Shown in pieces: positions 973 to 45,826 of a stretch of DNA of 64,000 nucleotides. The notes under the pieces were generated by a model. The model had not been told where the DNA came from, did no database searches, and saw nothing but the letters and a program-made list of their open reading frames with translations. Source of the DNA: Candidatus Aenigmatarchaeota archaeon (lineage in GTDB: Archaea; EX4484-52); NCBI GenBank assembly GCA_023137195.1, contig JAGLPV010000001.1:42242-106241 (forward strand), given 5' to 3'. Made by a program: the position numbers and the translations under genes. The stretch's first letter is position 1; every line of letters starts with the position of its first letter.

Positions 973-985
973 ACTAAATCGGGGT

Positions 986-1930: not shown

Positions 1931-1955
1931 ATTTTATCAACAAAGCAAAAATATG

Positions 1956-3026: not shown

Positions 3027-3136
3027 AATTTTACCTGCTAAAAACCATAGTTTTTTAAATATTTACTAATAATGATGGTAAAGCTTATAAAGATTTTGTT
3101 TTTTCGAACTCCTTTTATTAAATGAGTTAGGTAGCA

Positions 3137-6619: not shown

Positions 6620-6626
6620 GTTTAAG

Positions 6627-6700
6627 GGCGAGAGCCGGGACTCGAACCCGGGACAGAGGAGCCACAATCCTCTAGGCTAACCAACTACCCTACTCCCGTC
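6627..6700 (-). tRNA. tRNA-His (anticodon GTG), G-1 encoded, no encoded CCA
   Basis: Hand-folded cloverleaf. The T arm is CCGGG/TTCGAGT/CCCGG. The anticodon arm is GAGGA/TTGTGGC/TCCTC, with GTG at 6663-6665 (minus strand). The acceptor has 6 of 7 pairs plus G(-1, 6700) opposite C73 (6627), the tRNA-His signature. Confidence 0.85.
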
Positions 6701-17639: not shown

Positions 17640-18686
17640 TTAATAGCCTTCTTTGAACTCTACGTCAAATTCTTCTAAAATGATTCCGTTTTCATTGACT
17701 GCTTCTCCTATAATAGAAGCTTTGATTCCCTGTTTTTTTAGCACATCAATAATTTTATCGGCTTCTTTTGCGATAATCACGAAGCCAACGCCCATGTTGA
17801 AAGTTCTGAACATTTCTTTGTTGTCGACATTGCCTTTTTCCTGCATTGTTTTAAATATGGGTGGTATCTCTACCCACTTGTCTATTTTGTATCCGATTTT
17901 GTCATTTAACCGGGCAATGTTTAATATTCCGCCGCCTGTGATGTTTGCCAGCCCGGTAATGTCATTAAAGCATTTGTCCAACACATCCAGGACGGGCTTT
18001 ACATATATTGTTGTGGGGGTTAATATTTGCGGGGCGTATTTTTCAATATCTTCTTTGTTGCCGAGCAATACTTTTCTTGCCAGGGTTATGCCGTTTGTGT
18101 GGATGCCTGAACTTGCCAGTCCGATTATTTTATCTCCTGCCTTTATTTTATCTCCAAGAACGACTTTGTCTTTATCTACAGTTCCCAGGACTGCACCGGC
18201 TAAATCAAAACCTTTGTCGTCAATCCCGTTTATCACTTCTTTTAATGTTGCGGTCTCCCCGCCGACAATTGCAATTTCTGCCTGCCTTGCTCCTTCGCAT
18301 AATCCTTTGCCGAGTTCTAATGCCTGTTTTTGTGAATTTTTCCCGTCTGTTTTTGTCATTGCGAGGTAATCTACTAAGCTTATGGGTTCTGCGCCGAGGC
18401 ATATTACGTCATTTACGCACATTGCAATCATGTCTATGCCGACTGTGTCGTATTTGTCAATGAGTTGTGCTACAAGCACTTTTGAGCCCACTCCGTCTGT
18501 TGAAAGGACGAGGTACTTGTCGCCGAATTCTATTAAATTTGCAAAGTGTCCTATTTTTGACTTTACTGCTCCTACTTTGTTGTTTCGGAATTCCAGGGTT
18601 TTGCTGACTGCTGATACAAGGGATTTAATTGTGTCGGCTTCTTCATTAAAATTGACTCCTGCTTTTGCGTATGTCATTTGTTCCAT
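17640..18686 (-). CDS. purM: Phosphoribosylformylglycinamidine cyclo-ligase (AIR synthetase, PurM)
   Basis: YAKAGVN..., DGVGSKV, DMIAMCVNDV and GGETA motifs. 348 aa. Confidence 0.93.
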   Translation of the reverse strand: MEQMTYAKAGVNFNEEADTIKSLVSAVSKTLEFRNNKVGAVKSKIGHFANLIEFGDKYLVLSTDGVGSKVLVAQLIDKYDTVGIDMIAMCVNDVICLGAEPISLVDYLAMTKTDGKNSQKQALELGKGLCEGARQAEIAIVGGETATLKEVINGIDDKGFDLAGAVLGTVDKDKVVLGDKIKAGDKIIGLASSGIHTNGITLARKVLLGNKEDIEKYAPQILTPTTIYVKPVLDVLDKCFNDITGLANITGGGILNIARLNDKIGYKIDKWVEIPPIFKTMQEKGNVDNKEMFRTFNMGVGFVIIAKEADKIIDVLKKQGIKASIIGEAVNENGIILEEFDVEFKEGY

Positions 18687-18739
18687 AACATTAATCTATT
18701 TAGATGGTTTTTTATTTTTATCTAATAATTGATTATAAT

Positions 18740-18885
18740 TCAATTAGTCCGACAGTATCTCACTAATTGGTTTTTTTGTCCTTCAAATCCTTCGGGAATT
18801 TCAACTAAAAAGGAGGGTGGCATTTTGCCCCCATCCTTCTGCAAAGCTCTTATCTCTTTACCGGTGGTTTTTTAAATATCTTTCG
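18740..18885 (-). pseudogene. Decayed Bro-N/DinD-like gene fragment (repeat copy 1)
   Basis: The minus-strand reading is ...YLKNHR*RDKSFAEGWGQNATLLFS*, which parallels YLKDMRRRDESFAEGWGQIATPLSVE of the Bro-N ORF at 21.3 kb. It contains an in-frame stop and a 1-nt indel. Confidence 0.55.
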
Positions 18886-19274
18886 GCTACCAACGCCTCG
18901 GAAAATTTGCCGCTGGCAACTGCTTTGATGAAATTAAGCTCCATGTTAACAAAATCCATCTCTGTCTTGTCTTCGGCTTCTACATGCTTTCTTAATTCTT
19001 CCTTGCTGGATGTCCCCTCATCTGCAGATAATTTGAAATATTCCGGCACGCTGGTCTCCAGACGCCACAATACTATCTTTTTGATTTCCTCGTCAAGTTT
19101 TTTATCATTTGTCATATTATCCCCGTTCTCCAGCATTTTTATGATTTTTTCGCCAAGTTCAGAATTGTTTTTTACTTCAATCATTGCCGCATTCCATGCG
19201 TATGGTTCATCATCAATCACCACAATCACATCCTCTTTGCGGATTTTTTCAAGAAGGTTAGCATATATTCTCAT
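18858..19274 (-). CDS. Hypothetical protein (138 aa), possibly the 5' part of a disrupted chimeric gene
   Basis: Intact ORF with an acidic helical composition. Only its last codons (YLKNHR) and the 3' flank are homologous to the Bro-N gene. No other motif was recognised. Confidence 0.45.
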   Translation of the reverse strand: MRIYANLLEKIRKEDVIVVIDDEPYAWNAAMIEVKNNSELGEKIIKMLENGDNMTNDKKLDEEIKKIVLWRLETSVPEYFKLSADEGTSSKEELRKHVEAEDKTEMDFVNMELNFIKAVASGKFSEALVAERYLKNHR

Positions 19275-19359
19275 GAACTTTGCTTTTTTTGTCTTCCATG
19301 TATGATTTATACGTGCAGAATATTTAACTGTTTAACGCGCGCGCTATTTGAAAAATCAT

Positions 19360-19435
19360 TTATTTTCTTTCTCTAATTTTTTTCGTATTTTCCTTTAAAT
19401 CCAGATAATTATCCGGTGAAACTATATTTTTCCTA
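19360..19435 (-). pseudogene. Relic of a DinD/Bro-N-like gene C-terminus
   Basis: The minus-strand reading is ...NIVSPDNYLDLKENTKKIRERK*, which parallels IVSQDNYLDLKENRKKLEEKS* at 20574-20640. The ~60-nt stretch 19369-19430 is a near repeat of 20586-20645. The open frame (19360-19578) has no ATG. Confidence 0.5.
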
Positions 19436-19675
19436 TTTTGTGTCTTCAGTTTCAACCGTCGACAAATTGTCGATAACTCAATTTCGCTTGGTTCTGATTC
19501 TCTTTTTTCACAATATGCCAACGATTTTAGTTGTACGATTTTATCGTACGGTTCAAATCCTTCTTCTTTGAGTTTTATTTATTGTGGGGTTTAATGCCCT
19601 GTTGCTTGTGGTGGAATGTTATATTTTGTCTGAATTGATACTCTGAAGCTCTGTTTAGGGTTATTTATTGAGAAT

Positions 19676-19870
19676 TTATGAACTTTTAGATGCATTTTGT
19701 AAATTATTCAAATCAACATATTCAGATTCTGGAGTTTGTCTTGTTTCTTTTAATTCTTTTTTGGCATGGTCGCTTAATTCGTAATCCTCTTTAAGCGTGT
19801 TTTTGATAAATTCTATATCTATCTTCATTTCAAGCAGTTCCTGATGGAGTGTTTCAATTGAGATTGCCAT
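19676..19870 (-). CDS. Small hypothetical protein (64 aa, helical/charged)
   Basis: The track ORF is trimmed to the ATG at 19870 (MAISIETLHQELLEMKIDIEF...). Repeat copy 2 lies immediately upstream. Possibly antitoxin-like, but no motif supports that. Confidence 0.4.
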   Translation of the reverse strand: MAISIETLHQELLEMKIDIEFIKNTLKEDYELSDHAKKELKETRQTPESEYVDLNNLQNASKSS

Positions 19871-19911
19871 ATGGAGTATAATGGACGATAAAATTATATG
19901 GTTATGTTGCA

Positions 19912-19952
19912 GTTCAACTAAAAAGGAGGGCGGCAATTTGCCTCCACCCTTC
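19912..19952 (-). repeat. Bro-N core repeat, copy 2 (gene relic)
   Basis: gttcaactaaaaaggagggcggcaatttgcctccacccttc. The minus strand reads SEGWRQIAALLFS*. Homologous to 18799-18845 and 21268-21313. Confidence 0.6.
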
Positions 19953-19992
19953 GCTAAAATTATTGTAGATTTTCATGACATAAAAATAGAAA

Positions 19993-20199
19993 CTAAACGC
20001 TTAAAACCTCGATAGGGGTGCTTTTGTTTGCGTGTTTTAAAACATTGAGTTTTTCAAATCCAATTATGTTATTATTTTTGTCTTTTTTTAGTATTACTTC
20101 CTCTCCTGTTTCTTCGCAAATAAACTCTTTTTTTGCGTCATCAAACCATACATCTAAAGTATTTGTTTGGGTGTTTAATATGACTTTTATTTTTTCCAT
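19993..20199 (-). CDS. DUF2283-like small protein (putative antitoxin-type partner)
   Basis: 68 aa. MEKIKVILNTQTNTLDVWFDD...EETGEEVILKKDKNNNIIGFEKLNV matches the DUF2283 (YuzE-like) pattern. It overlaps the upstream gene by 13 nt. Confidence 0.65.
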   Translation of the reverse strand: MEKIKVILNTQTNTLDVWFDDAKKEFICEETGEEVILKKDKNNNIIGFEKLNVLKHANKSTPIEVLSV

Positions 20200-20522
20200 A
20201 TTTCTTCTCCTTCTTTTATTTTGTCTGTAATATATGTGGTTATGAGTATTTTTTTGATTTTATTTACAACCACGCATATATAACGCGGCTTATTATTATA
20301 AACTATTCTCCTGTAAATTAAATATACATTCTCGTCTGTTTTGCTTTGCCTTATTATTTCAGGGTCTTCTAATGTTTTTATGATGTCTTTTTCTTTGTTT
20401 TTCATCATAGGGTGTTTAATTGTGATAATATAATCCCAATAGCTTTCTGAAAGAGAGATGCTGGTATTCAAACGAGTCATTATCTCAAATTTTATTGTTT
20501 TTTTAACTGGCTTATTTTCCAT
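20187..20522 (-). CDS. Putative toxin-like protein (DUF4258/RelE-barnase-like layout)
   Basis: 111 aa. ...HPMMKNKEKDIIKTLEDPEIIRQSKTDENVYLIYRR...YICVVVNKIKKILITTYITDKIKEGEEIW resembles small toxins found paired with DUF2283. Assigned by pattern and pairing only. Confidence 0.5.
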   Translation of the reverse strand: MENKPVKKTIKFEIMTRLNTSISLSESYWDYIITIKHPMMKNKEKDIIKTLEDPEIIRQSKTDENVYLIYRRIVYNNKPRYICVVVNKIKKILITTYITDKIKEGEEIWKK

Positions 20523-20573
20523 ATTATGATTTTATTGTTTTCTTTTTACTGATTATTATAAATCCAATATTTT

Positions 20574-21474
20574 TCAACTTTTTTCCTCTAATTTCTTCCT
20601 ATTTTCCTTTAAATCCAGATAATTATCCTGGGAGACTATTTTTATTCCAAAACTCTTTTCTGCATCAATTCTTGCCCTTCCTGCGACTTTTCCGCCTTCT
20701 ATTGCTGTATCTTTGTTTTGGATAAAGCCCTGCGCATCTTTCTTTCGTGTTGCTTCTGTTGTTAATTTCTCGCCCAGCATTGAAAAGATAAGCTCTAAAT
20801 CAGCCATCCTAAAAAACCCGAAGGGGTTTTTGGGACACCAAAAATCTATGATTTTTGCGTGTGTGATCCCTTAAATTCTGGTTTTTGAATTTTGGGTCGA
20901 GTCCTTTAATTTGTTTGTGCGCTTTAATAGGGACTCCGAAAGTGGCTTTGGAGATTTCATTTGTCAGGATTGCGTAATCTCTTTTTTCTTCTATTCCTCT
21001 GTTTTTCCACTCTTCTGTTAATTCCTGTCTTATGGCGATTCCTCTTAAGCGTTTGTCAATCCAGTCTTTTGGGTATCCTTTTAATTCGTAGTATTCTTTT
21101 GCCCTGTCCTGTGCGAGTTCAGGGTTTTGAATTTCCTGTATTCTTTCGTATCCGACTTTTGCGAGCCATTGCTTGAATGGTTCTGCTTTGAGGGAAGGGA
21201 TTGATTGGATAAGACGAAAAGCTCCTTTCGTGGAGACGCAATTGAGCTTCTGAAGACCTCCGGCAGTTTCAACTGAAAGGGGGGTGGCAATTTGCCCCCA
21301 TCCTTCTGCAAAACTTTCGTCTCTTCGTCTCATGTCCTTTAAATATCCTTTTGGGTCTTTGCTGTCAGTGAGGATGGCAATGATGTCTGCGGCAACAAAC
21401 CACCATTCGTCATTAAACCATGTTCTTCTGATTTTTTGTCCCTCGAATATTGCAAGTGAGTTGGTTTGGTTCAT
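20574..21474 (-). pseudogene. Bro-N / DinD-like (DNA-damage-inducible protein D family) gene split by a 55-nt insert
   Basis: The 5' ORF (20809-21474) has the Bro-N core FAEGWGQIATPLSVETAGGLQKLNCVSTKGAFRLIQSIPSLKAEPFKQWLAKVGYERI. It reads ...NLRDH, then runs into 17 junk codons and a stop. The 3' ORF (20574-20807) starts MADLELIFSMLGEK..., which is the expected continuation. The insert at 20808-20862 forms two hairpins. Confidence 0.7.
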
Positions 21475-21477
21475 ATT

Positions 21478-22794
21478 TTACCTAAATTTAGTCCAATTAA
21501 AGCCTTTATCATGGCTTTTTTCAAGATATATTCCTTTATATCCGAGTATTTCTAACATAAATCTTTCAAAAATATTTAATGCTAAATAATATGCTTTTGT
21601 AGTTTTTTTAAAAGTTATTTTTTTAATTGGATTTTTTGATTTTCCTTCATGAATAACTAAATTTCTAATATCTATTAGAAGTTTCAAATTTTTTTCAGAG
21701 TATCTAAATTTTTCTAGATTAAAAATTTCTTCTAAAATTTCTTTAAAACTTTTTTTAATTCGCTTTCCTTTTTTATTTTTTATATAATTTCCTTTATTAT
21801 CTCTTTTATGTTCGTCAATCAAACAACTTTTAATATATCTTTCTTTCAATGCTTCAAACAAGATTGCAATTAGTGCAAATTTTGCCTCTAATGTAACGCA
21901 ACGAAAAGATTCTATGTAAAATTCAATTAAATCGTGAAAGTCATTGATTTTATTTAAAATCGCTTCAAAATTTGGATATGTTTTTTCAATAACATCAGAA
22001 ATAGGATTTGAATAACTAAATCGAAGAATGCCATCATTTTCCGAATAAGGATATTTTTTATCATCAAAATAAATTCTCTTTAAGGCATTATCTTGTACAA
22101 TTTCAATTTTTTCTAAAGAAACATAGTTTGCAGTATAGAATGACAATAAATACAACAACTGATGTATAGTTTTTGTTTTATTAGAAATATAAATAGAATT
22201 AGTTTCGAATCGAATAATAGCAGTAGTCTGACATATTCCATAATACTCTAAAAGATCTTTAGAATTTTTATCATAATAGTATGGACATACCCTATATTTT
22301 TGTTTGTCAATAAAAAAATCCCTTTTGTAAACACTTATTTTTCCAAGATTCATATTATTCAAATAATATCTTACTTCTTTTTTGCCTCTAATAAATTTGC
22401 CTTCTTTTATTTCTAAATCACATGGAAGAAATTTCCATATTTGACGCCCTTCTGACCCACATAGAATATTTTTTTTAATTACAATTTTCTCTTCATTTTC
22501 ACTTATGCCTTCAAATCGGAATATTTTTTTTGATATTTTTTCGTCTATATCTAGAAAAATATTATTATCCGAATATAAAAAAAACTCTTTAACTCCATTA
22601 GAATAAATAATTAATCGAAAATTACCAGATATTACCAAACCCTTTTTATTAATTGTTTTGCCTTTGCCAGAATATTCTTCAGATTTTTTAATTTGCTTTT
22701 TTTGTTCCGCACATGTTTTTTTTAGTTCTTCGTTTTCTTTTCTTAATTTTTCATTTTCTTCCACAAGATTATTATTTTCTTCTATTTTACTCAT
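21478..22794 (-). CDS. Coiled-coil protein with a C-terminal HEPN-like Rx4H motif (candidate ApeA-like abortive-infection RNase)
   Basis: 438-439 aa. N-terminal heptad-like EENEKLRKENEELKK. The C-terminal helical region contains LEAKFALIAILFEALKERY and IDIRNLVIHEG (RNLVIH at 21649-21666). Its ATG at 22794 overlaps the TGA of the upstream 34-codon ORF. Coding status is solid; the function is hypothesis. Confidence 0.75.
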   Translation of the reverse strand: MSKIEENNNLVEENEKLRKENEELKKTCAEQKKQIKKSEEYSGKGKTINKKGLVISGNFRLIIYSNGVKEFFLYSDNNIFLDIDEKISKKIFRFEGISENEEKIVIKKNILCGSEGRQIWKFLPCDLEIKEGKFIRGKKEVRYYLNNMNLGKISVYKRDFFIDKQKYRVCPYYYDKNSKDLLEYYGICQTTAIIRFETNSIYISNKTKTIHQLLYLLSFYTANYVSLEKIEIVQDNALKRIYFDDKKYPYSENDGILRFSYSNPISDVIEKTYPNFEAILNKINDFHDLIEFYIESFRCVTLEAKFALIAILFEALKERYIKSCLIDEHKRDNKGNYIKNKKGKRIKKSFKEILEEIFNLEKFRYSEKNLKLLIDIRNLVIHEGKSKNPIKKITFKKTTKAYYLALNIFERFMLEILGYKGIYLEKSHDKGFNWTKFR

Positions 22795-22898
22795 CACAAC
22801 CCTCCTTCAACAACTTTAATCTCATCATCATTTAGCTCATACAACAGATAAACCATTCTGTCAATTTCCTTGTCGGTTTCATCTATTTTTTCTTCCAT
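22794..22898 (-). pseudogene. 34-codon relic/mini-ORF duplicating the C-terminal tail of a type IIG methyltransferase
   Basis: MEEKIDETDKEIDRMVYLLYELNDDEIKVVEGGL* compares with the RM C-terminus LKEKIDETDREIDKMVYKLYGLSNEEIGIVEGL* (23551-23655). A ~45-nt nucleotide core is nearly identical. Confidence 0.55.
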
Positions 22899-22933
22899 CT
22901 CATCACAATAATTTTTTTGTTATTTTCATACTT

Positions 22934-23554
22934 TTAATATATGTTGAATCGTTCTCTCAATATGCATCTTGTTTGCTCTAAACTATAAAGCAATCCTTTT
23001 TTATCAGAATTGTCATTTATTATATCCATTATTTTTAAATGATAATAATTGTAAATTTTATCTTTTAAAATAAAATCATATCTTTTGTTTTTGGAGTTTA
23101 TGAAAACATTAAAAGAATCTTGTATTTTTATCATCATGAAATTGATAATGCGGGATTTATCTTCTATTCGATTTATGTATTTTTTTAAATCATTTGTTGA
23201 TCTTTTATCAATTTCATAATCGAGAATACGATAATACAACGATTCATTAGGTAATGGTAATAAATAAAAGGGAATGGATTGTTTTTTATAAGATTCTATC
23301 ATTTTTTCAATTTCATCAATCTTATATTTTAGTGTCCTTAATTGAGCTTTTTGATTTTTATCATGTTCTGATTTTTTAATCCATTCAGCTCCAATAAAAA
23401 TCATGATTGCAAACACTATAGAAATTATTGTAACCGACCCTGCGTGTTTGTCAAAAACTTCAATTAAATAATGAAAGTTACTATATATTAGAGTTAATAA
23501 TATTCCTAAAAAGAGTCCAAATAGGAAATAAATATAATTCTTTTTTTCCATCAT
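22934..23554 (-). CDS. Two-TM membrane protein with a helical cytoplasmic domain, unknown function, coupled to the RM gene
   Basis: 206 aa with hydrophobic segments YIYFLFGLFLGILLTLIY and VTIISIVFAIMIFIGAEW. Its ATG overlaps the RM stop (ATGA at 23551-23554). Confidence 0.7.
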   Translation of the reverse strand: MMEKKNYIYFLFGLFLGILLTLIYSNFHYLIEVFDKHAGSVTIISIVFAIMIFIGAEWIKKSEHDKNQKAQLRTLKYKIDEIEKMIESYKKQSIPFYLLPLPNESLYYRILDYEIDKRSTNDLKKYINRIEDKSRIINFMMIKIQDSFNVFINSKNKRYDFILKDKIYNYYHLKIMDIINDNSDKKGLLYSLEQTRCILRERFNIY

Positions 23555-26500
23555 AATCCCTCAACAATCCCAATTTCTTCATTACTCAATCCATACAATT
23601 TATAAACCATTTTGTCAATTTCCCTATCCGTTTCATCTATTTTTTCTTTCAGTTCTATTAATTCCTTTTTTCGCTCTTCAAAATACCCATCCCATTCATC
23701 CTGCTGTTTTAGAGACAGATTTATTTTTTGCTTTTTCAATTCGCCCAAAAAATCGGCAAAATTCAGATTAAAGAATTTATCTAATTTTTTTGTAATTTTT
23801 TCTAAATTTAAATTCTGCTTTAGTCGGCTTAAAAATTTGTTTTTCTTATTGTAAAAGTCCTTATTTAAATCAAGCATTATATCTGCTTTTTCTATGAATA
23901 GAGTTTGTTTTTCAATATCTATTTTTTTAATCGGAAATTTCCTCAAATCATTTAAAATTATTTTTGGAAACATTTTTCTAACAGATTTAGCCGTACTCTT
24001 TAAGAAATAATAAGACATTAAACTACTATTGAGTATAACCAATATATATTTCAAAGAAATATTTGTTCCTTCTTTTTCTATGATGGCAATATTGCTCCGA
24101 TTGAATAAATATAATTCATCACTAAATGTTGATATAATAGATTTCGGGAATGTTCCTGTAATTTCTCGTATAATTAGTTTAGATCCAGAAAATATATTAA
24201 ATGTTCTGGGGGCGGCAAGATGCTCGCCATATTTTAAATATAAATCACGCCAATTCAAATAATATCTTCCTACATCTTTTCCGTCCAAATATTTATGCGT
24301 GTCTTTATCATATTTGTAATTGAAATCATATGGTCTCTTTTTCACATCTTCTGCTGTTTGTTTGGGATTTCCTTTTCCATCTTCGTATGCTTGTAAACCT
24401 GCTTTTATGGTTGTTAAATCATTCAAGATACTTGAATTTGCTTTTAGTTTATTTAATAGTTTTTTGCTGTTATCATCAAAAAATACTTTAAATTCAAAAT
24501 CATCATCATTCTTAAAATCTTCTTGATTTTTTGAATGCGAGAATTCAAATAGTTTTCCTCTGCTCATTAAAATATTTATTTTATTAGTTTTTGTGTTTTG
24601 TTTTTTTGCATTAAAAATTATGGTTTCTACATTTACTCCTTCAAATGAATAACCAGATAAATTTATTATCTCTTTGATTTCGGAGGTTTTTAATATATAT
24701 TCTCTTAATTTCTTTGCAGAATTTACCATTAGCCAAGCATTTGGGACAATTAATCCATAATTCCCAGAATTCTTTAATAGAGCTATAGATTTCTCGATAA
24801 ATAATACATAAGTATTTACTTGATATTGGGCAGAATCATAATTGGACGAGTAATAATTTTTCTCTTCTTCGGATATTTTTTCTCTGGCAAAAATGTAAGG
24901 CGGATTCCCCACAACAACATCAAACCCGCCTTTCTCAAAAATCTCTTTAAACTCATCTCCCCACTTAAACGCCTTTTTCCCGGCAACTGCCTCATCATCA
25001 ATCAATGAATTTCCGCATTTGATATTTTCAGACAAACTGATTAATTTCTTGTTTTTTCTGGCAATTTTCAAAAACAGGGACAATTTTGTAATTTCAACAG
25101 ATTCTTCATTCAAATCCACGCCGAAAATATTATTCTGGATTATTTCCTTTGCCTCTTCCTCTTCGCTCCATTTTTTAAGCATTAATTGATTTTTTCCTTT
25201 GCTAAATGATGTGTATTGTCCGCTGTCCTGCTTGAACAGCCCGATTTCCCTGTGGATTTCCAGAAGAACATCAACTGCTTTTATCAAAAAAGCACCACTG
25301 CCGCAGGCAGGGTCAAGTATTTTTATATTGGCAAATTTTTCCTCAAGTTCTCTCATATTGCCGGAATATTCCAGAACCAGCTCTTTTGGAGTTTTGGCGG
25401 ATTTCTTTGACAAATAAGGGATGATGGTATTCCTGCAAATATAGTCTGTGATATATTCAGGAGTGTAAAATATGCCTTCCTTTTTTCTTTTTGAAATTTT
25501 GGATTCTTTCAGCGCATCTATATCGCTGAGGGACTGCTCGAAAATATGCCCGAGTATATTGACGCTGACCTCTGTCTTAAAGTCAAAAGAAGCCATCAAT
25601 AAAATGTTTTTCACTATCGGGTTTATTTTCCCGCTGTATTTGTCAATTGACTTTTGGGTGATTTCATCCAGATTTGCATCCTTTGCAAGACTGGAATTCT
25701 GGTAAATTTCAGAAAAAAAGCCCTTGTCCCGCATATCCTTAAAATAGATTTTCCGGGGTATCGGCATCCTGAAAAATTCCCCATTGAATCCGAATATTTT
25801 TATAGGGGTCGAAGCCCCTTTGTCAAGAGATAAAAACAAATCCGTTATTGAATCGCAGATGTAATGAGAATGCTCTGATATTGGCGTTGATTCCACTATA
25901 TTTACGACCCTGTCTTCAAAAATCCTTTTAGGAAGTTTGTCTGTGTCTTCTGCAAAAAAGATAAACATCAGGCGATTCAAAAATATCTGCGCAAAATGAA
26001 TGGGAGTATTTACTTTGTCGTGAAGCTCCTCGTTTTCTGCAAATTCCTTTATCAGCATCAGGCGGGTTTCATGAAACAATTTGTAAAATTCCTTTGTAAA
26101 GTTCTTTTCCTCTTTGATTGATTCATTTTCTGCTTTTTGGACAAAACCGCTTTCAATGCTTTTTTTGCCAAAAACAGCAATAAATTCCTTTAGTTTGCTG
26201 TCGCTGTTTTTGATGTCGAGAAAATCAAATATATGGTATTTGTCGTAGCTTTTGCCTCTATCGAACAAAACAAAATGCCTGTAATTTGTAAGAATGCCGT
26301 AAGGTATTTCGTATTTGCTCAAATAATCCCATATCTGGTTTACAGGCGTTGCTCTTGTTTTTGTATCTCTGCCCTGATATGCCCATAAATCTTTTGTTTT
26401 TGCGCCTTTTGCCTCAAAGCAAACCAATTTTTTTGAGTTTGAATCATTGAAAAGAAATTCAATATTGTGCCTTTCAAAATCAAAGTTTTTTGTGTTGTAG

Positions 26501-26679
26501 TCCAGTAAATTGTTTAATATTGTATCTGCAAACCTGAAATAATTTTTCTTCTCATCCTCTAATTTGTTATTTTCCAGCAATTCAATCCATTTTTTAGCAG
26601 CTTTTTTTTGCGATGCAGACGGCAAAGTATCAGAGCAAAGTTTTTCAAGAGTTTTTGGCTTGAACAAATTAGTTTCCAT
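23551..26679 (-). CDS. Type IIG (single-chain, Eco57I/MmeI-like) restriction endonuclease / N6-adenine DNA methyltransferase
   Basis: The N-terminus has a PD-(D/E)xK-like VCFEAKGAKT plus GILTNYRHFVLFD. The AdoMet motif ILDPACGSGAFL is at 25288-25317. The catalytic GNPPY has its NPPY at 24895-24906. A long C-terminal target-recognition region ends in the MVYKLYGLSNEEI tail. The start is probably METNLFK at 26679; the track start is 26697. Confidence 0.85.
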   Translation of the reverse strand: METNLFKPKTLEKLCSDTLPSASQKKAAKKWIELLENNKLEDEKKNYFRFADTILNNLLDYNTKNFDFERHNIEFLFNDSNSKKLVCFEAKGAKTKDLWAYQGRDTKTRATPVNQIWDYLSKYEIPYGILTNYRHFVLFDRGKSYDKYHIFDFLDIKNSDSKLKEFIAVFGKKSIESGFVQKAENESIKEEKNFTKEFYKLFHETRLMLIKEFAENEELHDKVNTPIHFAQIFLNRLMFIFFAEDTDKLPKRIFEDRVVNIVESTPISEHSHYICDSITDLFLSLDKGASTPIKIFGFNGEFFRMPIPRKIYFKDMRDKGFFSEIYQNSSLAKDANLDEITQKSIDKYSGKINPIVKNILLMASFDFKTEVSVNILGHIFEQSLSDIDALKESKISKRKKEGIFYTPEYITDYICRNTIIPYLSKKSAKTPKELVLEYSGNMRELEEKFANIKILDPACGSGAFLIKAVDVLLEIHREIGLFKQDSGQYTSFSKGKNQLMLKKWSEEEEAKEIIQNNIFGVDLNEESVEITKLSLFLKIARKNKKLISLSENIKCGNSLIDDEAVAGKKAFKWGDEFKEIFEKGGFDVVVGNPPYIFAREKISEEEKNYYSSNYDSAQYQVNTYVLFIEKSIALLKNSGNYGLIVPNAWLMVNSAKKLREYILKTSEIKEIINLSGYSFEGVNVETIIFNAKKQNTKTNKINILMSRGKLFEFSHSKNQEDFKNDDDFEFKVFFDDNSKKLLNKLKANSSILNDLTTIKAGLQAYEDGKGNPKQTAEDVKKRPYDFNYKYDKDTHKYLDGKDVGRYYLNWRDLYLKYGEHLAAPRTFNIFSGSKLIIREITGTFPKSIISTFSDELYLFNRSNIAIIEKEGTNISLKYILVILNSSLMSYYFLKSTAKSVRKMFPKIILNDLRKFPIKKIDIEKQTLFIEKADIMLDLNKDFYNKKNKFLSRLKQNLNLEKITKKLDKFFNLNFADFLGELKKQKINLSLKQQDEWDGYFEERKKELIELKEKIDETDREIDKMVYKLYGLSNEEIGIVEGL

Positions 26680-26729
26680 TAGTATAAATACTCTCAAATC
26701 TTATAAATTTATTCAATATGCAAACGATT

Positions 26730-28082
26730 TTAAAACACCTCTAATTGCTCCCTATACAACTCAACATAATAATAAACTGCCTGCTTTATATCCCCGTATT
26801 TTGTTCCCCTTATATGCGAGTAGTATTTCTCCTTCATGTCATTATAAAATATTATTGGAAAATACCCATGCTTGATTAATATAAAGTTAAACAGCAATCG
26901 TGCAACTCTTCCGTTGCCATCGTCGAAAGGGTGAATATAAACAAATTGATTATGAACCACCAAAGCAAGCACTAATGGATGAAGTGTGTTGTTGTTTTTA
27001 TTATACCAATCGACCAATAACCTGACTCTTTCATCGACAAACTCAGGGGGAGTGGTATTATCAACAAGAATTCCTGAATCATTAATAACGCAATTATCCT
27101 CTATTTTATAATTGCCCGCAGATTCCCCGATACCCTGTTGAGTAGCTAAGTTTAGCTTTTTTATGAATTCAACAGTAAGCTCATTTGACGTATCAAAGAT
27201 ATTATCCAATGCAGTTCTTGAATTTGTAGTTTCCAATATTGCTTTTTTATCTTTTTTTACAAGCTCATTTCCTATGGTAAGAATAGTTCTTACATCCTGC
27301 ATAGTAAGAATGTTTCCTTCTATTTTATCAGTATTGTAAATATATTTTATTTTCCAATCTGTTATTCGTCTTTCTATCTCAAAAATATTTGAATAAAATT
27401 CTTTTCTCTTTTTCTCTGTTAGTACATCTATTACAGTAATAAGGGGAAAATCAGTTTCCCTTAATTTACTTAAGATAAAATCTTTCCCGTCTAAATAATG
27501 TTTTATGTTGAGTTCTGCTAATTCTTTAGATTGATCATCAGGGAGATGTTCTTTTTTTGCAGTAGTTGCTGAAAAAAATTTTATTACATCATGTCTATAC
27601 TCTTCCTCATCAAATTTTAAATCGATATCAAAAAAGTCTAATAACATTTTTGTTGGTTCTTCCCATGACCTAATAAGATAAATGACACTATTTCCTTTAT
27701 GAATAGAGTATATTATTCTTGTCTTTCTTGCGATGTCTTTAACTACTCTTAAATTATGATATGGAAGTTCATGTGATTTTAATGTTGGTTCAACACTAAA
27801 CCTTTGTAATATATTTTTTACATGAGTCGTGAATAATGATTCCGCATCCTGTTTGAAAATAGCAGTAATTGCTTCTATGATTTTTACTTTTGCGTTCATT
27901 TTATTTAGCGAATAAACACCTTTGCCCTCTTTTGTAATGTAATTCAAATTTTGTAATTTTCTTAAATACGGATGAATCCCGGAGTGATATTTTAGATTCA
28001 TTAAAATCGCTAATTCTTCCGAAGTATAACTTTCTTTATTGCCTAAACACATTTTTATTAATATTTTTATTTCTTTATTCAT
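26730..28082 (-). CDS. Fic-domain protein (putative AMPylase) with an N-terminal winged-helix domain
   Basis: The Fic motif HPFDDGNGRVAR is at 26898-26933. An intramolecular inhibitory-helix-type motif TDKIEG ([S/T]xxxE[G/N]) is at 27315-27332. The N-terminus is MarR-like wHTH (ELAILMNLKYHSGIHPYLRKLQNLNYITKEGKGVYSL). Confidence 0.88.
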   Translation of the reverse strand: MNKEIKILIKMCLGNKESYTSEELAILMNLKYHSGIHPYLRKLQNLNYITKEGKGVYSLNKMNAKVKIIEAITAIFKQDAESLFTTHVKNILQRFSVEPTLKSHELPYHNLRVVKDIARKTRIIYSIHKGNSVIYLIRSWEEPTKMLLDFFDIDLKFDEEEYRHDVIKFFSATTAKKEHLPDDQSKELAELNIKHYLDGKDFILSKLRETDFPLITVIDVLTEKKRKEFYSNIFEIERRITDWKIKYIYNTDKIEGNILTMQDVRTILTIGNELVKKDKKAILETTNSRTALDNIFDTSNELTVEFIKKLNLATQQGIGESAGNYKIEDNCVINDSGILVDNTTPPEFVDERVRLLVDWYNKNNNTLHPLVLALVVHNQFVYIHPFDDGNGRVARLLFNFILIKHGYFPIIFYNDMKEKYYSHIRGTKYGDIKQAVYYYVELYREQLEVF

Positions 28083-28221
28083 AATACCGTTATATATGAC
28101 CTTAAATTTATAAATGTGTGTGTATTTTTTAATAAATTAATAAATTTAATAATAATAAGAGTTAACATGTGTTAACAAATTAATAAAAATAATTATTCCC
28201 GTTCGGGTTTAATACATCAAT

Positions 28222-28998
28222 TCAAAACTCCTCTTCAACATACTTCACAGCATTCTCAAATATCGCCAGCCCTGAAGTCGAACCCACAGACTCATCCGAA
28301 GCCCGCTCTGGGTGAGGCATCATCCCAAGAATCGTCCCTGTCGAGTTGCATATCCCTGCAATATCATACACCGAACCATTAGGATTAAACGGATATTTCC
28401 CGTTTGCAGGTCTTGCTTTATCATCCCCGTAAATAAAGACAATCTGGTCATTTTCAATCAATTTCATCAGCAGTTCCTGAGATATCTTGAAATTTCCTTC
28501 CCCGTGAGCGATAGGCATCTTTAAAGTGCGGTCATAAGGAATTCCTTTTGCAAATATGCATTTCCCCCTGCTGGCATTAATCAAATTAACGCTCCTGCTC
28601 TCGAACGTCAGTTTTTCATTTGTTGCAAGAGCCGCCTGCTGTGTTTTGCTTATGCCGTCAATTCCCGGCAAAAGTCCTGCTTCGACCAATATCTGGAACC
28701 CATTGCAGATTCCGATTATCGGCTTTTTTGCATTTACAAATTCTTCAACATCGGCAGAAAGTTCCTTCATCAGTTTCTTTGCAAATACTACTCCTGAGCG
28801 GATATGGTCTGAATTTGAAAACCCGCCGGGAAATACCAAAATATGAAAGTCATTTAGTTTTTCTTCTTTTGACAGGAATTTGTTTAAGTGAATTACTCTT
28901 GAGTTTGCCCCGAGTTTATTGAAAATGTAGTTTGTCTCCCTGTCGCAGTTTGTGCCGGGTTCGCGCAGGACGCAGACTTTTATTTTATTTTTTTCCAT
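28222..28998 (-). CDS. purQ: Phosphoribosylformylglycinamidine synthase, glutaminase subunit (PurQ)
   Basis: Class I glutamine amidotransferase with nucleophile context GICNGFQIL and MPHPER near the C-terminus. Confidence 0.92.
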   Translation of the reverse strand: MEKNKIKVCVLREPGTNCDRETNYIFNKLGANSRVIHLNKFLSKEEKLNDFHILVFPGGFSNSDHIRSGVVFAKKLMKELSADVEEFVNAKKPIIGICNGFQILVEAGLLPGIDGISKTQQAALATNEKLTFESRSVNLINASRGKCIFAKGIPYDRTLKMPIAHGEGNFKISQELLMKLIENDQIVFIYGDDKARPANGKYPFNPNGSVYDIAGICNSTGTILGMMPHPERASDESVGSTSGLAIFENAVKYVEEEF

Positions 28999-29000
28999 AT

Positions 29001-31391
29001 TTATTTTAGACCTCCAAGCCAGCTTTGCTTTAATGTACCAATATCTTCATCTATTATGGTTTTTTCTTTTTCGCCTGTTTTAATTATCACTTTTTCTTCT
29101 TCAATTGTTTTTCCGACTAGAGATGCAAAGTCTCCCAGTTCCTGCTCAAACTTTTTTGCATTTCCTTTTTCAACTTCAACCAAAAACCTGCTGTTTGATT
29201 CTGAAAAGAGAATCTGGTAATCTTTGAGCGGTCTGTTGCATATTGCTTTTGACAAATCAATTTCTGCTCCGATGCCGTCAAAGCACATTTCCGAAAGGGC
29301 AACTGCAAGACCCCCTTCAGACAGGTCATGGCAGGTCAAGACAAGATTGCCATCCATTGCATTAATGAGCAGGTCGTATATTTTTTTTGCATGTTTTGTC
29401 CTGACTTTCGGGACATTTGCACCCAAAAATCCTTTAATTTTGTAAAAATGAGAACCGCCAAGTTCATTGCATGTTGTTCCAATTAGGTAAATATTGTTGC
29501 CGGGTTTTTTGAAATTCATAGATACTTTATTTTGAGCATCAGGGATTAACCCTATTGCAGTAATCACAAGTGTCGGAGTAACGGGACCTTCTTCAGACTG
29601 GTTGTACAGGCTGTCCTTTCCGCTGATGAAAGGAGTCTTGTATTCCATTGCTGTGTCGTAGCATGCCTGCGAGGCACGGACAAGACCGCCAAGATTTTGC
29701 GGTATCTGGGGATTGCCCCAAGAGTAATTATCCAATAGTGCAATTCTTCTTCCGCCGACAGCAGTGTTGTTCCTTACAGCTTCATCTATTGCTGAAGTTG
29801 CCATGTGATAAGGGTCGATTTTTCCGTATTCCGGGTTAAATCCGCATGATATTACAACGCCTTTTTTGCTCTTCAATAATGGTTTTACAACGCTTGCGTC
29901 TCCCGGGGAGTCTTCTTTTTTCCCGTGCAGAGGACCGAGGGCTGTTCCTGCCCTCACGGTTGAATCATAACTGTGGATTACTTTTTCCTTGCTTGCAACA
30001 TTCGGGGAAGACAATATTTTAGCTAACTCCTTATTGTAATTGTCGGATTCAACAATTTTTGGTTCTGATAAATCAGGTTTTTTCCATTCTGCTTTTTTGT
30101 AAGTATTTGGAACGGCGTTAAATAAAAAGTCAATATCTATGCTTGCGACTTCATCCCCCGCGTATTTCAGGACAAGATTTTTTTCTTCTGTGAATTCGCC
30201 TATTTTGACGACTTCAACATCTTCTGCTTCAAATATTTTGGCTACTTTTTCGTAATTTTCTTTTGGAACTAAAATAAGCATCCTTTCCTGTGATTCGCTT
30301 ATCCATATTTCCCATGGCTTTAATCCCTTGTATTTTAGAGGGACTTTGTCTAAATCCACAATTGTTCCCAGATCATAAGTATGGCACATTTCACCTACTG
30401 CTGAAGAAAGTCCGCCTCCGCCGAGGTCTGTTATGCCGGAGCCAAGGTTTTTTGCGCTAACTTCCATTATTCCTCTCATCACTTTTTCCTCTTCTATGGG
30501 GTCGCCTATCTGGACAGCAGAGCCGTTTATCTCTTCTGATTCTGTGCTTAAATTAGCAGATGCAAAAGATACGCCGTGTATGCCGTCTTTTCCGGTTCTT
30601 CCACCGACAAGAACCAGATAATCTCCGTTTTTTGCTTCTCTTACATATTTGCTTTTTTCCAACAGTCCGAAGCATCCGCAGAAGACAAGAGGGTTAGTAG
30701 TATAAGATTTGTCAAAATAAATTGCGCCGTTTACTGTGGGGATTCCCATCTTGTTGCCGTAATCTCCGATTCCCCGGACAACGCCTTTGAATAAATATTT
30801 TGGGTGTTTTGTGCCTTTTGGCAGGTTCTCATAACTCATGTCAGTATCTCCGAAGCAAAGTACATTTGTATTTGCAAATGGCTCTGCCCATACTCCTAAG
30901 ACATCACGGATGCATCCGCCAACGCCTGTTGCCGCTCCGCCAAATGGTTCTAAGGCAGAAGGATGGTTGTGCGTTTCAACTTTTACTGCAATGACATAAT
31001 CATCAACAAAATCCACCATGCCTGCATTGTCGTCAAACACGCTGAAGCACCAGGATCTGTCTAATTCTTTTGTTGCGCGCATGATTGTCTGCTTTAGCAT
31101 ATTTTTTAGTTTGCCTTCTTTGTCTAAAGTAATACTGTCTGTTTCCAAAACGTTTTTATCCATGTAAATGTCATGTCGGAATGTTTTGTGTATGCAGTGT
31201 TCTGACCAGGACTGGTTGAAAATTTCTATCTCAACATCTGTCGGGTTTCTCTGCTCTTTTGAAAAGTATTTCTGTATTTCAAGGAGTTCATCCTTGTTTA
31301 ATGCAAGGTTTCTTTGGGTGTTTATTTTGTTGAGTTCTTCTTCTGTCTTGCCTTGCATTTCTATTTCTCTGATGTCTTTGTTGTATTTCAT
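29001..31391 (-). CDS. purL: Phosphoribosylformylglycinamidine synthase II (PurL)
   Basis: 796 aa. ETHNHPSALEPFGGAATGVGG, duplicated PurM-like domains, and GGLSSAVGEM. Confidence 0.95.
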   Translation of the reverse strand: MKYNKDIREIEMQGKTEEELNKINTQRNLALNKDELLEIQKYFSKEQRNPTDVEIEIFNQSWSEHCIHKTFRHDIYMDKNVLETDSITLDKEGKLKNMLKQTIMRATKELDRSWCFSVFDDNAGMVDFVDDYVIAVKVETHNHPSALEPFGGAATGVGGCIRDVLGVWAEPFANTNVLCFGDTDMSYENLPKGTKHPKYLFKGVVRGIGDYGNKMGIPTVNGAIYFDKSYTTNPLVFCGCFGLLEKSKYVREAKNGDYLVLVGGRTGKDGIHGVSFASANLSTESEEINGSAVQIGDPIEEEKVMRGIMEVSAKNLGSGITDLGGGGLSSAVGEMCHTYDLGTIVDLDKVPLKYKGLKPWEIWISESQERMLILVPKENYEKVAKIFEAEDVEVVKIGEFTEEKNLVLKYAGDEVASIDIDFLFNAVPNTYKKAEWKKPDLSEPKIVESDNYNKELAKILSSPNVASKEKVIHSYDSTVRAGTALGPLHGKKEDSPGDASVVKPLLKSKKGVVISCGFNPEYGKIDPYHMATSAIDEAVRNNTAVGGRRIALLDNYSWGNPQIPQNLGGLVRASQACYDTAMEYKTPFISGKDSLYNQSEEGPVTPTLVITAIGLIPDAQNKVSMNFKKPGNNIYLIGTTCNELGGSHFYKIKGFLGANVPKVRTKHAKKIYDLLINAMDGNLVLTCHDLSEGGLAVALSEMCFDGIGAEIDLSKAICNRPLKDYQILFSESNSRFLVEVEKGNAKKFEQELGDFASLVGKTIEEEKVIIKTGEKEKTIIDEDIGTLKQSWLGGLK

Positions 31392-31846
31392 AGTATGGAG
31401 TATTCTTCTGTAATTGGATTGGAGAGCAATTCTTTTGCTATTTTTTCAAGCAATTCTTTATCCAGAGACTCTCCTTTCAATAAATATATTTTTGATGTTT
31501 TGATGCTCTTTGTTTTATATCCTAAATCAGCGAAAGTGGAGGATGTTGAATTTCCCAACGGGTCGCTTAGCTTTCCTTTTATTTCAATTGTGCTGTAATC
31601 TCCAAAGTCCTGTTTTTCCCCGGTTTTCTGGATTTGGTATTCATTTATTACTGGGTTTACTATTGTTTTTTTTGCGATAGTTTCTATCTGGTTTTTGTCG
31701 GATATGTCGATGTCAATAATATAAGAAGTTGCTGTTTTTACAGTGGTTATTTGAGTATAGCCTAGTTTTTTTAGGGTTTTGAGAACCGTGTTTGCCTGGC
31801 TGTCAAGAACGCCCGGGAGAAAACCGACTGTTATTTTGTATTGCAT
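31388..31846 (-). CDS. purS: Tandem PurS-PurS fusion (FGAM synthase PurS component)
   Basis: 152 aa made of two ~75-aa PurS-like halves (KITVGFLPGVLDSQANTVLKTLKKLGY...NPVINEYQI and IEIKGKLSDPLGNSTSSTFADLGY...NPITEEYSI). It overlaps purL by 4 nt. Confidence 0.75.
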   Translation of the reverse strand: MQYKITVGFLPGVLDSQANTVLKTLKKLGYTQITTVKTATSYIIDIDISDKNQIETIAKKTIVNPVINEYQIQKTGEKQDFGDYSTIEIKGKLSDPLGNSTSSTFADLGYKTKSIKTSKIYLLKGESLDKELLEKIAKELLSNPITEEYSIL

Positions 31847-31896: not shown

Positions 31897-33369
31897 TTAA
31901 ATAAAGGAAAATGCTGTTAGCGGGATATAAATTATATTTTCATCCATTGTTATTTTTTGTGTGTCTGATATTACAATTCCGTATTCAGATTTGTATTTCA
32001 TAATGGCTCTTTTTATTTGCCTTTTGTTCTTTTTCCCGATGCCTACTTCTATTGGAATTATTTTTCCTTCTATGTCCTCGAGCAGAAAATCAACGCCTTC
32101 TTTATCTGCATCGTAAAATATCCCTATTGGAACTTTTAGCGTTTCTTTTATCCTGAAAAAATATGAAGCAACCAGAGTTTCTGCCAATATTCCGAGCATT
32201 TCTCTGTCTGTATTGTTGTATAAGCCAAGTTTGTATCTTAAGGATGCATTTATCGAGGGAGATAAAAAATAATATTTCCATGGCTTTCTTACAATTTTTC
32301 CTGCTCCACCGTATGGCTTTACACTGAAAATCAAGTGTGTTTTTTCAAGGACATCAAGTATGCTCCTTACTAGGGTTGGAGACACAGAGAGTCTCTCTGA
32401 AAGTTTTGCATCAGAAGTGCCCCCTGGGTTTTGCATGGCAAGGAAATATATGATTCTTGTAATGTGATTTCTTGTGTCTGTGCTAAAGGACTGAAGAGAG
32501 AATACATCCATTTCTATTACTCGGTCAGTCATCTTGGCTAATTTCTCGTGCACCTCAAACTCCTTTAATGAAAGACTAAACGGAAAACCACCGTAACACA
32601 AAAAATTCTCCAATTCTCTCTTCAAATCAACCCCTGCACCAATCGCCTTCATTATAATTTTATGCTCTATTTCAGCAGCATTTTCCACAGCTTTTTTATT
32701 CCCGGTGAAAATGATTTTTATTATCTCTGATGAAAAATTTTCTGAAAGGTCAATTCCGTATTTTAAATGCAGATGCTCCTCAAAACTCAATGGAAAAATT
32801 CGTATTTCTGATGCCCTTCTGGCAGCATCGACATTTAATTCCAAATCCAATGCTGAGGATCCGGTAAATACAATAAAGATTTTTCTGCTTTGGTCAAAGA
32901 AGATTTTTCCTGTCATAGACCAGTCCTTGTCGTAGTGTGCTTCATCAACAAAGATTATTAATGGCTCGTCAAGCTCTACTGCTGTAGTTCTGTGGACTTT
33001 CTGGATAAATGCATCAATTACATGCAATATATTTTCTCCAATATAACCCTTCATTTCGTCTGTAGAAAAATACAGCACGCGGTTTTTGTCTATTTTTTTT
33101 TTATCTATCAGGTAATCGTAAATTTGGAATAATATTGTTGTTTTTCCCATACTCCTTAATCCGGGCATGATTATAAACCTGTTTTCTAAATTCTTTCCCG
33201 AGAGAAAGTCATCGATATATTTTTTTATTTCCCAATAAGCACGCCTGTATTTAAGTCGAATGTGGTTTTTATGAGTATATTTTTGTGCCAGCAATGGCGT
33301 ACTTGTTAATTTTGCAAATACATAGTTTGGTATTGTATCTTTGTCATCAATTGCTGTTTTTCCTGCCAT
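31897..33369 (-). CDS. AAA-family ATPase with a DUF4143-like C-terminal domain (COG1373-type)
   Basis: Walker A GLRSMGKTT and Walker B IIFVDEAHY. The C-terminal segment (ETLVASYF...GVDFLLED...IPIEVGIGKK) is typical of AAA_14 + DUF4143 proteins. Confidence 0.8.
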   Translation of the reverse strand: MAGKTAIDDKDTIPNYVFAKLTSTPLLAQKYTHKNHIRLKYRRAYWEIKKYIDDFLSGKNLENRFIIMPGLRSMGKTTILFQIYDYLIDKKKIDKNRVLYFSTDEMKGYIGENILHVIDAFIQKVHRTTAVELDEPLIIFVDEAHYDKDWSMTGKIFFDQSRKIFIVFTGSSALDLELNVDAARRASEIRIFPLSFEEHLHLKYGIDLSENFSSEIIKIIFTGNKKAVENAAEIEHKIIMKAIGAGVDLKRELENFLCYGGFPFSLSLKEFEVHEKLAKMTDRVIEMDVFSLQSFSTDTRNHITRIIYFLAMQNPGGTSDAKLSERLSVSPTLVRSILDVLEKTHLIFSVKPYGGAGKIVRKPWKYYFLSPSINASLRYKLGLYNNTDREMLGILAETLVASYFFRIKETLKVPIGIFYDADKEGVDFLLEDIEGKIIPIEVGIGKKNKRQIKRAIMKYKSEYGIVISDTQKITMDENIIYIPLTAFSFI

Positions 33370-33837
33370 ATTTCTTATACATATATATGTATAAAGCTTT
33401 ATAAAGGCTTATACATTTGAGTGTATAAAGAGTTTAGAGAAACTATGTTTGAATATGCGAAGTTAAATCTTTGATTTAATTTGAGTGAAGCGTAGCGAAA
33501 CCGTATATTCTGTGTTCCGGGAAGTTTTTTCTGAAAGAAAAAATTTGGGCGCAACCATAGGACTCGTTTTTATCGTCTAATTTCACAATCAAGTTATCTG
33601 ATTTCCTAGATATTCTATCACATGCACAATACGCTATTTTCCTGTTGTGGTTGGTGCATATAGCAATAATATATTGGTTATAGAATTTATAAATACTTTG
33701 TTTTTAGAAAATAAACTATCTTGTTTTTATCGTAAAACGATTCAAATTTTTGTTGTTGTTTTTTATCGTCAAGCCCTTTATAATGCCATATTTCGGCATT
33801 TAAGGTATATAAAGATCCAATCGTACTAATAGATAAT

Positions 33838-43009: not shown

Positions 43010-43132
43010 AAAACATCTAAAATCACTTCTGGATGCTTAAATAAGGGGTTATAATAGTAAAGCGATAAAAAACCAGCTTTTTAAGCACCAAAACATTTAT
43101 AAATATCAGATTGCTAAAATTATAAACTAAAA

Positions 43133-44756: not shown

Positions 44757-44879
44757 AATAGATTGAAAAACAGTAAAAACAGTCGCACAAAATGAATTTT
44801 TGTGTCGTAAATGTAGTTCTATGCTGGTTTATATTGCAGCTAAAACATTTTTATATAATTAATATACACTTAATTTATA

Positions 44880-45740: not shown

Positions 45741-45826
45741 ATTTATATTTTTTGCATATGGGCGTAAATAAGGATAAATATTTTCGCATCTTGTGAATTA
45801 AATAAGTTCTAAATAAATTTTTCAAC

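Follow-up and report, generated by a model that had tools for sequence, protein, structure and literature searches.

Clusters of restriction-modification (RM), abortive-infection and toxin-antitoxin (TA) genes in variable genome regions were reportedly described as defence islands by Makarova et al. in 2011. A recent restatement of this concept comes together with the finding that DPANN genomes are enriched in SoFic and in single-gene PDC candidates, while DPANN archaea are thought to be poor in restriction systems and to rely mostly on compact defences of one gene (PMC12988326). The locus described here lies in a 64,000-nt stretch of DNA (the window) from a Candidatus Aenigmatarchaeota archaeon, where 9.5 kb (18687-28221) separate the purine genes purQ and purM, with all named genes on the minus strand. 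This interval is probably a mosaic defence/accessory cluster at a synteny breakpoint, built piecemeal by recombination with foreign DNA. On this reading the cluster did not split an operon; it is an ordinary defence island, assembled by homologous or illegitimate recombination and not by site-specific integration. Its Fic and PDC content fits the enrichment reported for DPANN, the RM enzyme being a less typical component.

With defence islands in general the cluster shares the grouping of defence-type genes, variable content, mosaic composition, gene decay and cassette replacement. It differs from them in its setting, a reduced DPANN genome with no mobile-element genes nearby, in two members that are dead or candidates only, and in the core purine operon that sits amid variable DNA. 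Genomic islands carried by an integrase into tRNA genes resemble it in their partly aberrant composition and in their absence from relatives, whereas the cluster is without integrase, tRNA target or flanking direct repeats and has several compositional sources. The locus leaves general views unchanged; its value is that of an example, in which a tiny DPANN genome stocks, swaps and discards defence genes without visible integration machinery, beside essential purine genes, and in which the exchange of an RM 3' end is seen as a population variant, along with the clean insertion or deletion (indel) of a single gene, PDC-S01. The window is identical to contig DAOWDG010000028.1 of the metagenome-assembled genome (MAG) GCA_030639115.1, whose proteins are labelled Candidatus Aenigmarchaeota (DPANN), and near-identical contigs are present in several ZHAN22-2 metagenome assemblies. 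Sequence L001 matches the window with 100% identity over 7640-28686.

The purQ-purM interval and its counterparts in relatives

Clustering of at least two defence systems or candidates within a few kilobases is recognized here: a type IIG RM gene, a Fic gene of the PDC-S04/SoFic kind, a PDC-S13 gene and a PDC-S01 gene are accompanied by o439, a protein with a HEPN motif. The content varies among close relatives, and a variant contig was also found within the population. Judged by their families, the working parts would be the type IIG RM enzyme, the Fic protein, o439, a DUF2283 gene pair and, beyond purSLQ, the PDC-S01 ATPase; the dead parts would comprise the PDC-S13 gene broken by 55 inserted nt, fragments of two or three earlier PDC-S13 copies and the stub of an RM 3' end.

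Close relatives in the protein collection amount to four short contigs, three of them recognized by PurQ (91, 87 and 84% identity; L087, L090 and L091) and one by PurM (80%; L092), and none of the GTDB species representatives exceeds 54% PurQ identity. The genes that come after purQ are on the opposite strand in each case: three membrane or ORFan genes (23-25% G+C) in L087, an ABC transporter and others in L090, and genes with orthologues at 43.1-45.7 kb of the window in L091. The L091 genes in question (823-4137) encode a type II secretion F-like protein, PcrB, a DHH protein and a 123-aa open reading frame (ORF); they correspond to window positions 43093-45751, in a different relative orientation and about 15 kb off. 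In L092, purM has a peptidase C15 gene on one side and a small ORF on the other; purQ is missing there, as is AlkD, the downstream neighbour of purM in the window, and purM relatives at 60-63% identity are found in the order purE-purC-purB-purM-guaA. Between the window and its relatives, DNA homology reaches no further than the purQ stop codon, the purM start and a point 50-65 nt ahead of purS. The displacement of the L091 genes with respect to the window shows a rearrangement with its breakpoint at the purQ stop. The genes of the defence cluster are absent from the corresponding sites of the close relatives.

The first-pass annotation had placed an island inside a purS-purL-purQ...purM gene string. 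While its coordinates and strand for purS, purL, purQ and purM and its identification of the genes in between are all correct, the string itself is not supported: purQ and purM are adjacent in none of L087, L090, L091 and L092, and the outcome which that annotation itself had named as refuting it, purQ and purM never being neighbours in the lineage, is what the sampled close relatives show. The shared orientation, taken as a sign of such a string, is uninformative because the run of same-strand genes extends well beyond the pur genes, from 33369 to 9281 (about 20 genes, 24 kb). We infer that purSLQ and purM are two conserved modules independent of each other, each with an upstream region and a promoter of its own, and that they flank the cluster in this genome by chance. 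The conserved purSLQ module sits in variable DNA on both sides, in the window as well as in L087, where two ORFans of 22-27% G+C, one of them weakly HEPN, lie ahead of purS. The low-G+C ORFans on the two sides of purSLQ in L087 (5459-7012 and 10799-12472) have no kinship with the window's low-G+C genes and give no PADLOC match.

The interval has 30.5% G+C as against 36.3% in the rest of the window. All of the 25 lowest-G+C 500-nt windows of the 64 kb fall inside it, and 500-nt windows below 28% G+C make up 40% of the interval and 0.6% of the surrounding DNA; the spot counts given earlier for four 60-nt lines (10, 11, 31 and 32 of 60) were reproduced exactly. The description as an AT-rich island holds with one correction: composition is not uniformly deviant, and segments range from 23% to 41% G+C: o439 has 23.4%, o206 23.0%, the RM gene 32%, the Fic gene 30%, the zone of gene relics 35%, and the Bro-N gene 40.7%, which is above the genome value. 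Within the RM gene itself the methylase core has 35-38%, and the 3' third, comprising the specificity domain and the tail, 25-28%. The strongly aberrant stretch is confined to about 21.0-25.5 kb (23% G+C). Along these lines, tetranucleotide deviation exceeds that of every outside window at about 20-25.5 kb (z up to 10), does not exceed 3.3 in the flanking thirds, and at 26.5-28.5 kb is barely above the outside maximum. Foreign DNA of three or more kinds, as told by composition, would have contributed to this mosaic.

No integrase or transposase domain was detected in ORFs of the interval of at least 65 aa on the coding strand. The nearest tRNA is at least 6.6 kb away in window coordinates, the Rfam scan of the whole window giving only a tRNA-His at 6626-6699, and comparison of the borders (18.6-19.1 kb with 27.95-28.35 kb) revealed no repeat, direct or inverted, as long as 12 nt. 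A tRNA or transfer-messenger RNA (tmRNA) target and flanking direct repeats are thus absent, and the earlier report of no integrase, transposase, tRNA target or flanking repeat is borne out by these scans. The broader proposal is supported as well: the region is accessory and in part foreign in composition, missing from the matching places in relatives, marked by serial recombination and decay, and without recognizable integration machinery.

Restriction, HEPN-motif, Fic and Bro-N genes

The largest gene of the cluster (23551-26697, minus strand) encodes an RM enzyme of 1048 aa, of the MmeI/Eco57I kind. Pfam matches are to Eco57I (8e-46), N6_Mtase (1e-20), TaqI_C (3e-19), MmeI_hel and MmeI_Mtase, the PADLOC match is to REase_MTase_IIG (2.9e-79), and the translation shows the methylase motifs DPACGSGAFL and NPPY (motifs I and IV). 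As expected for type IIG, one chain combines the nuclease, the methylase and the specificity part, the nuclease match being weak (HSDR_N_2, 0.0066). The protein is therefore predicted to be a single-chain type IIG enzyme that would methylate its own DNA and cut unmodified DNA. It shares with MmeI and Eco57I the order of a nuclease-like N-terminus, an MmeI helical spacer, a gamma-class N6-adenine methylase and a TaqI_C-type specificity domain, and its specificity end appears exchangeable, as in that family. On the other hand, the similarity is at profile level only, and among solved structures the best relatives match in the methylase core and nowhere else. The stop codon of the RM gene is overlapped by 4 nt by the start of o206 (22934-23554, minus strand), a predicted membrane protein of 206 aa that belongs to no family and is unrelated to the 212-aa ORF of a type III RM locus (L098).

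A copy of the final 33 RM codons lies at 22901-22803. It belongs to a relic (22803-22924, minus strand) left by the 3' end of another RM gene, with 67% amino acid and 72% nucleotide identity to the live end; this stub abuts the start of o439. From the position of the stub and its identity to the live end, an older pair can be proposed, consisting of a former RM gene (RM') and o439, in which RM' would have been replaced by the present cassette of RM and o206. Exchange of the 3' end may still be going on in the population. In sample SAMN18200490, contig L005 matches the window perfectly for 6.25 kb, then shows 4 mismatches in 46 nt and diverges completely at window position 23757, thereby encoding a 981-aa RM protein with a different tail; a second contig of this sample starts at window position 23555. 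This looks like the coexistence of alleles at the RM 3' end, and the site of divergence coincides with the drop in G+C within the gene. The relic together with the coexisting variant contig argues for cassette swapping by recombination. The divergent 112-nt tail of L005 (6305-6416) has no match among the other sequences compared.

The gene that follows, o439 (21478-22797, minus strand, 23% G+C), is rare. A word-based search retrieved o439 and one other protein, and with exhaustive HMMER searching of 1.84 billion proteins the family came to 41 representatives (E<=1e-3). When 24 members are aligned, only three positions prove invariant, namely R378, H383 and G422; of these, R378 and H383 form an RNxxxH motif that corresponds to the Rx4-6H signature of HEPN proteins, in support of the HEPN-like label given before. 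Two members of the family match HEPN_RiboL-PSP weakly, and the precomputed annotation of o439 in the protein collection is Pfam YopA_C. The AlphaFold model (predicted local distance difference test, pLDDT, 88.5) shows beta-rich domains in the N-terminal part, a coiled coil, and helices (266-417) that make up the C-terminal domain. Foldseek comparison of the full-length model with the PDB and BFVD gave nothing below E 0.02, and a profile search of the family against PDB sequences gave no match. Weak matches to split-barrel or PilZ-like folds (E 0.02-0.3) were not trusted. A metagenome scan for further relatives (alignment A2) returned 600 pattern matches and no true relative, and the relatives P0243 and P0244 are on contigs too short for gene context.

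A homologue with 46% identity to o439 immediately follows a type III Mod/Res pair; its contig has about 25% G+C. The arrangement is paralleled in the window, where the RM stub abuts the o439 start. The protein o439 is probably an RNase-type abortive-infection effector, whose gene would originally have been coupled to an RM stop codon. Known HEPN abortive-infection and toxin RNases (RiboL-PSP-HEPN, AbiD/F-type; Pfam YopA_C) share with it the invariant Rx4H in a helical C-terminal domain and likewise the position beside RM genes. In contrast to these, o439 has N-terminal beta-rich domains without a significant structural match, its family is tiny and its nuclease role is a predicted one. The interest of o439 is that of a rare HEPN family, found twice directly behind RM genes; it may define a family of RM-coupled HEPN effectors with a new beta-rich sensor domain.

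Next to purQ, the interval begins with a Fic gene (26730-28082, minus strand), identified by Pfam (Fic domain PF02661, 6e-17), by its motifs and by FICD, the closest protein among solved structures (3e-22). The active-site motif HPFDDGNGRVAR and, upstream, the inhibitory-helix motif TDKIEG are both present in the translation, in keeping with HPFx(D/E)GNGRxxR and an N-terminal (S/T)xxxE(G/N) as in class II Fic proteins. PADLOC matches are to PDC-S04 (4.8e-30) and SoFic (2.4e-27). We take the protein to be a predicted class II AMP-transferase that carries an inhibitory helix of its own and whose N-terminus resembles a DNA-binding one. Both motifs are shared with FICD/HYPE and with the SoFic candidate, from which the protein differs by about 200 extra N-terminal residues of winged-helix-like character; against NCBIfam SoFic it scores 40 bits, the cut-off being 550 bits. 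Scanning of viral contigs with the Fic sequence found no relatives. In Planctomycetales, the junction of purQ and purM is occupied by a Fic gene in L013 (1248-2291), by Fic and TIR-like genes in L030 (10831-12855), and by a nucleotidyltransferase gene and three ORFs in L086 (10914-13800). The idea of a functional link between Fic and purQ, which came from these loci, was dropped, related loci being only 2 out of 80 and the Fic subfamily a different one.

At the other side of o439 lies the PDC-S13 gene (Bro-N, DinD-like; 20574-21474, minus strand). It is split into a Bro-N ORF of 221 aa (20809-21474; Bro-N profile match 1e-12) and a downstream ORF of 77 aa. Of the 286 positions of the PDC-S13 profile, the Bro-N ORF covers 1-206 (5e-81) and the 77-aa ORF 204-277 (1.7e-17), and intact homologues on viral contigs align across both ORFs, in two different frames; from this adjoining coverage, and from homologues that span both frames, it follows that the two ORFs are one PDC-S13 gene. 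An intact gene of about 286 aa covering the whole profile is not found, the two ORFs being separated through a 55-nt insert with two hairpins (20808-20862), which falls exactly at the boundary of two conserved blocks, NLRDH and M(T/A)DLELIF. The insert brings a frameshift and a stop, and its excision restores the frame. By its sequence, then, the gene is a pseudogene or a split gene, and the insert may be a footprint, a tiny element or a segment removed at the RNA level. Two more specific identities were rejected: an archaeal bulge-helix-bulge intron, as by eye the hairpins are independent and the intron start is unpaired with the 3' exon, and a repeated miniature element, as the insert occurs in a single copy in the window.

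Further copies of this gene are scattered over the left third of the interval, which had been described as a graveyard of repeated fragments; the fragments prove to be Bro-N/PDC-S13 pieces, with the RM-end relic at 22803-22901 as an additional case. Bro-N residues 14-66 are repeated at 18968-18810 (E 6e-6). The relic concerned (18796-18968, minus strand) contains an in-frame stop, forms the C-terminal end of o138 and extends into the upstream spacer of purM; o138 itself (18858-19274, minus strand) is a chimeric ORF without a family match, in which a 100-aa N-terminal part that belongs to no family precedes the Bro-N relic. The C-terminal part of the PDC-S13 gene recurs at 19500-19366 (E 7e-6), in a relic on the minus strand with 38% identity to residues 30-76 of the 77-aa ORF (78-nt repeat D3). 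A 58-nt piece of Bro-N is present three times, at 18796, 19909 and 21263, the copy at 19909-19966 being overlapped by the start of the small ORF o86 (19676-19966, minus strand). With three generations of PDC-S13 fragments, the gene seems to have arrived and decayed more than once.

Between these relics and the PDC-S13 gene, two small overlapping genes (19993-20522, minus strand) may constitute a TA pair, which is a candidate by the profile match of one half. That half, DUF2283 (19993-20199), matches with 7e-7, above the cut-off; its partner o111 (20187-20522, 111 aa) has no family or structural match, and its single-sequence structure model reaches a pLDDT of 59. The previous TA-like label is accordingly sustained for DUF2283 and not for the partner.

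Alternative origins of the arrangement

The position of the cluster between two pur modules invites other explanations. A single accessory island could have been inserted, and later reworked, between adjacent purQ and purM genes of an ancestral purS-purL-purQ-purM operon. Its borders, the purQ stop and the purM start, would agree with this, purQ is directly followed by purM in Omnitrophota (L017, L043, L038, L051) and in Planctomycetia (L059), and the accessory genes at the purQ-purM junction of the Planctomycetales loci L013, L030 and L086 indicate that such insertion occurs elsewhere. However, no close relative has purQ near purM, more distant DPANN place purM after purB, the 24-kb co-oriented run is not pur-specific, and the composition indicates several sources. 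Moreover, the nearest homologues of PurQ and PurL outside the genus belong to Bathyarchaeia (49-54%; other DPANN 40-44%), and those of PurM to DPANN/Altiarchaeota (50-63%), a hint of separate histories which suggests that purSLQ and purM are possibly of different origins. An insertion into an operon is therefore unlikely. A related thought is that an ancestral supercluster of purSLQ, purE-purC-purB and purM lost its middle, the gap being filled by accessory genes. In a distant Aenigmatarchaeota MAG (L049), the only such DPANN case found, purSLQ and purM do occur in one cluster of 8.5 kb (purS-L-Q, two unrelated genes, purE, an ORF, purC, purB, an ORF and purM, all but one co-oriented); the arrangement in L053 (Bathyarchaeia) is similar, and purE, purC and purB are not in the 64 kb window. 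Yet L049 is distant (purQ 40%, purM 43% identity), close relatives have not kept the linkage, and queries with L093 pur proteins detected no pur pseudogene fragment at 18.7-28.2 kb, so that an eroded supercluster appears very unlikely.

Remnants of a provirus or plasmid whose integrase was lost would account for the gene relics, for the PHROG matches of the RM, Fic and Bro-N genes and for the frequency of Bro-N/PDC-S13 homologues on viral contigs (190 confirmed matches, 40-57% identity). Such an origin is highly improbable, since the ORFs and borders of the interval bear no signature of capsid, terminase, replication, integrase or att site, the Fic protein has no relative on viral contigs, and the content is defence cargo instead of virus core genes. 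Even less can be said for a chimera of assembly or binning that joined two unrelated loci within the RM gene. Two per-sample assemblies do break between 23555 and 23757, but contigs of 97 kb and 172 kb both hold purQ, o439 and purM, the RM frame continues through the break to a conserved C-terminal motif, and the contigs that break there have flanks matching the window at 99.9-100% identity; the probability of an artefact is practically negligible. A different question is whether purSLQ itself, with about 65 nt of upstream DNA, is a horizontally acquired module that relocates within hypervariable defence DNA of this DPANN lineage. The idea derives from the nearest outgroup homologues, which are from Bathyarchaeia and not from DPANN, and although doubtful it would, if true, make a step of purine synthesis part of the cargo of the flexible genome.

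The preferred reading, a mosaic defence cluster put together piecemeal at a synteny breakpoint, has to face several points that weigh against it. The defence role is deduced from family membership, and the PDC families are candidates. About half of the interval (Fic gene, RM core and 18.7-20 kb) is compositionally near the host and could be old. The HEPN assignment of o439 relies on the motif, the helical prediction and weak profile matches, with no significant match in the PDB or BFVD, and the toxin half of the putative DUF2283 TA pair has no family match. In addition, the close relatives are only four, on short contigs, and an ancestral purQ-purM neighbourhood could have existed.

Flanking genes and spacers

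On the left, the interval is bordered by purM (17640-18686, minus strand), encoding an AIR synthase (AIRS/AIRS_C), with the homology to L092 (80% at the amino acid level) beginning at the start codon. The right flank (28222-31846, minus strand) consists of the purQ-purL-purS operon, with purQ at 28222-28998 (GATase_5, 1.5e-68), purL at 29001-31391 and purS, which here has the double-domain form, at 31388-31846. The spacer between purQ and the Fic gene (28083-28221, minus strand) has 18.7% G+C. Within 28160-28215, the hairpin CCCGAACGGG with a T-run comes directly 3' of the purQ stop and the inverted repeat GTTAACA-CA-TGTTAAC (7 bp) is placed ahead of the Fic gene, as is the box TTTATAAAT; by eye these elements may be a putative terminator, operator and promoter.

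Beyond purS, and outside the 9.5-kb interval, an AAA_14/DUF4143 ATPase of PADLOC family PDC-S01 (7.5e-30) is encoded at 31900-33407 on the minus strand. In comparison with L087 this gene is a clean 1.5 kb indel, by which the 30-65 nt that precede purS in L087 are split in the window into 33408-33437 and about 31899. The word CCTTTAT marks one end of the insert and recurs near its opposite end. Two small differences were seen between contigs. In L006 (SAMN18200497), 10 extra nt within purL at about position 514 (window position 29325) split the gene call into 176 and 112 aa, which reflects either a real frameshift variant or an assembly error. Near 35522, a single-base indel distinguishes the window from L004, which belongs to the same NCBI record as L001.

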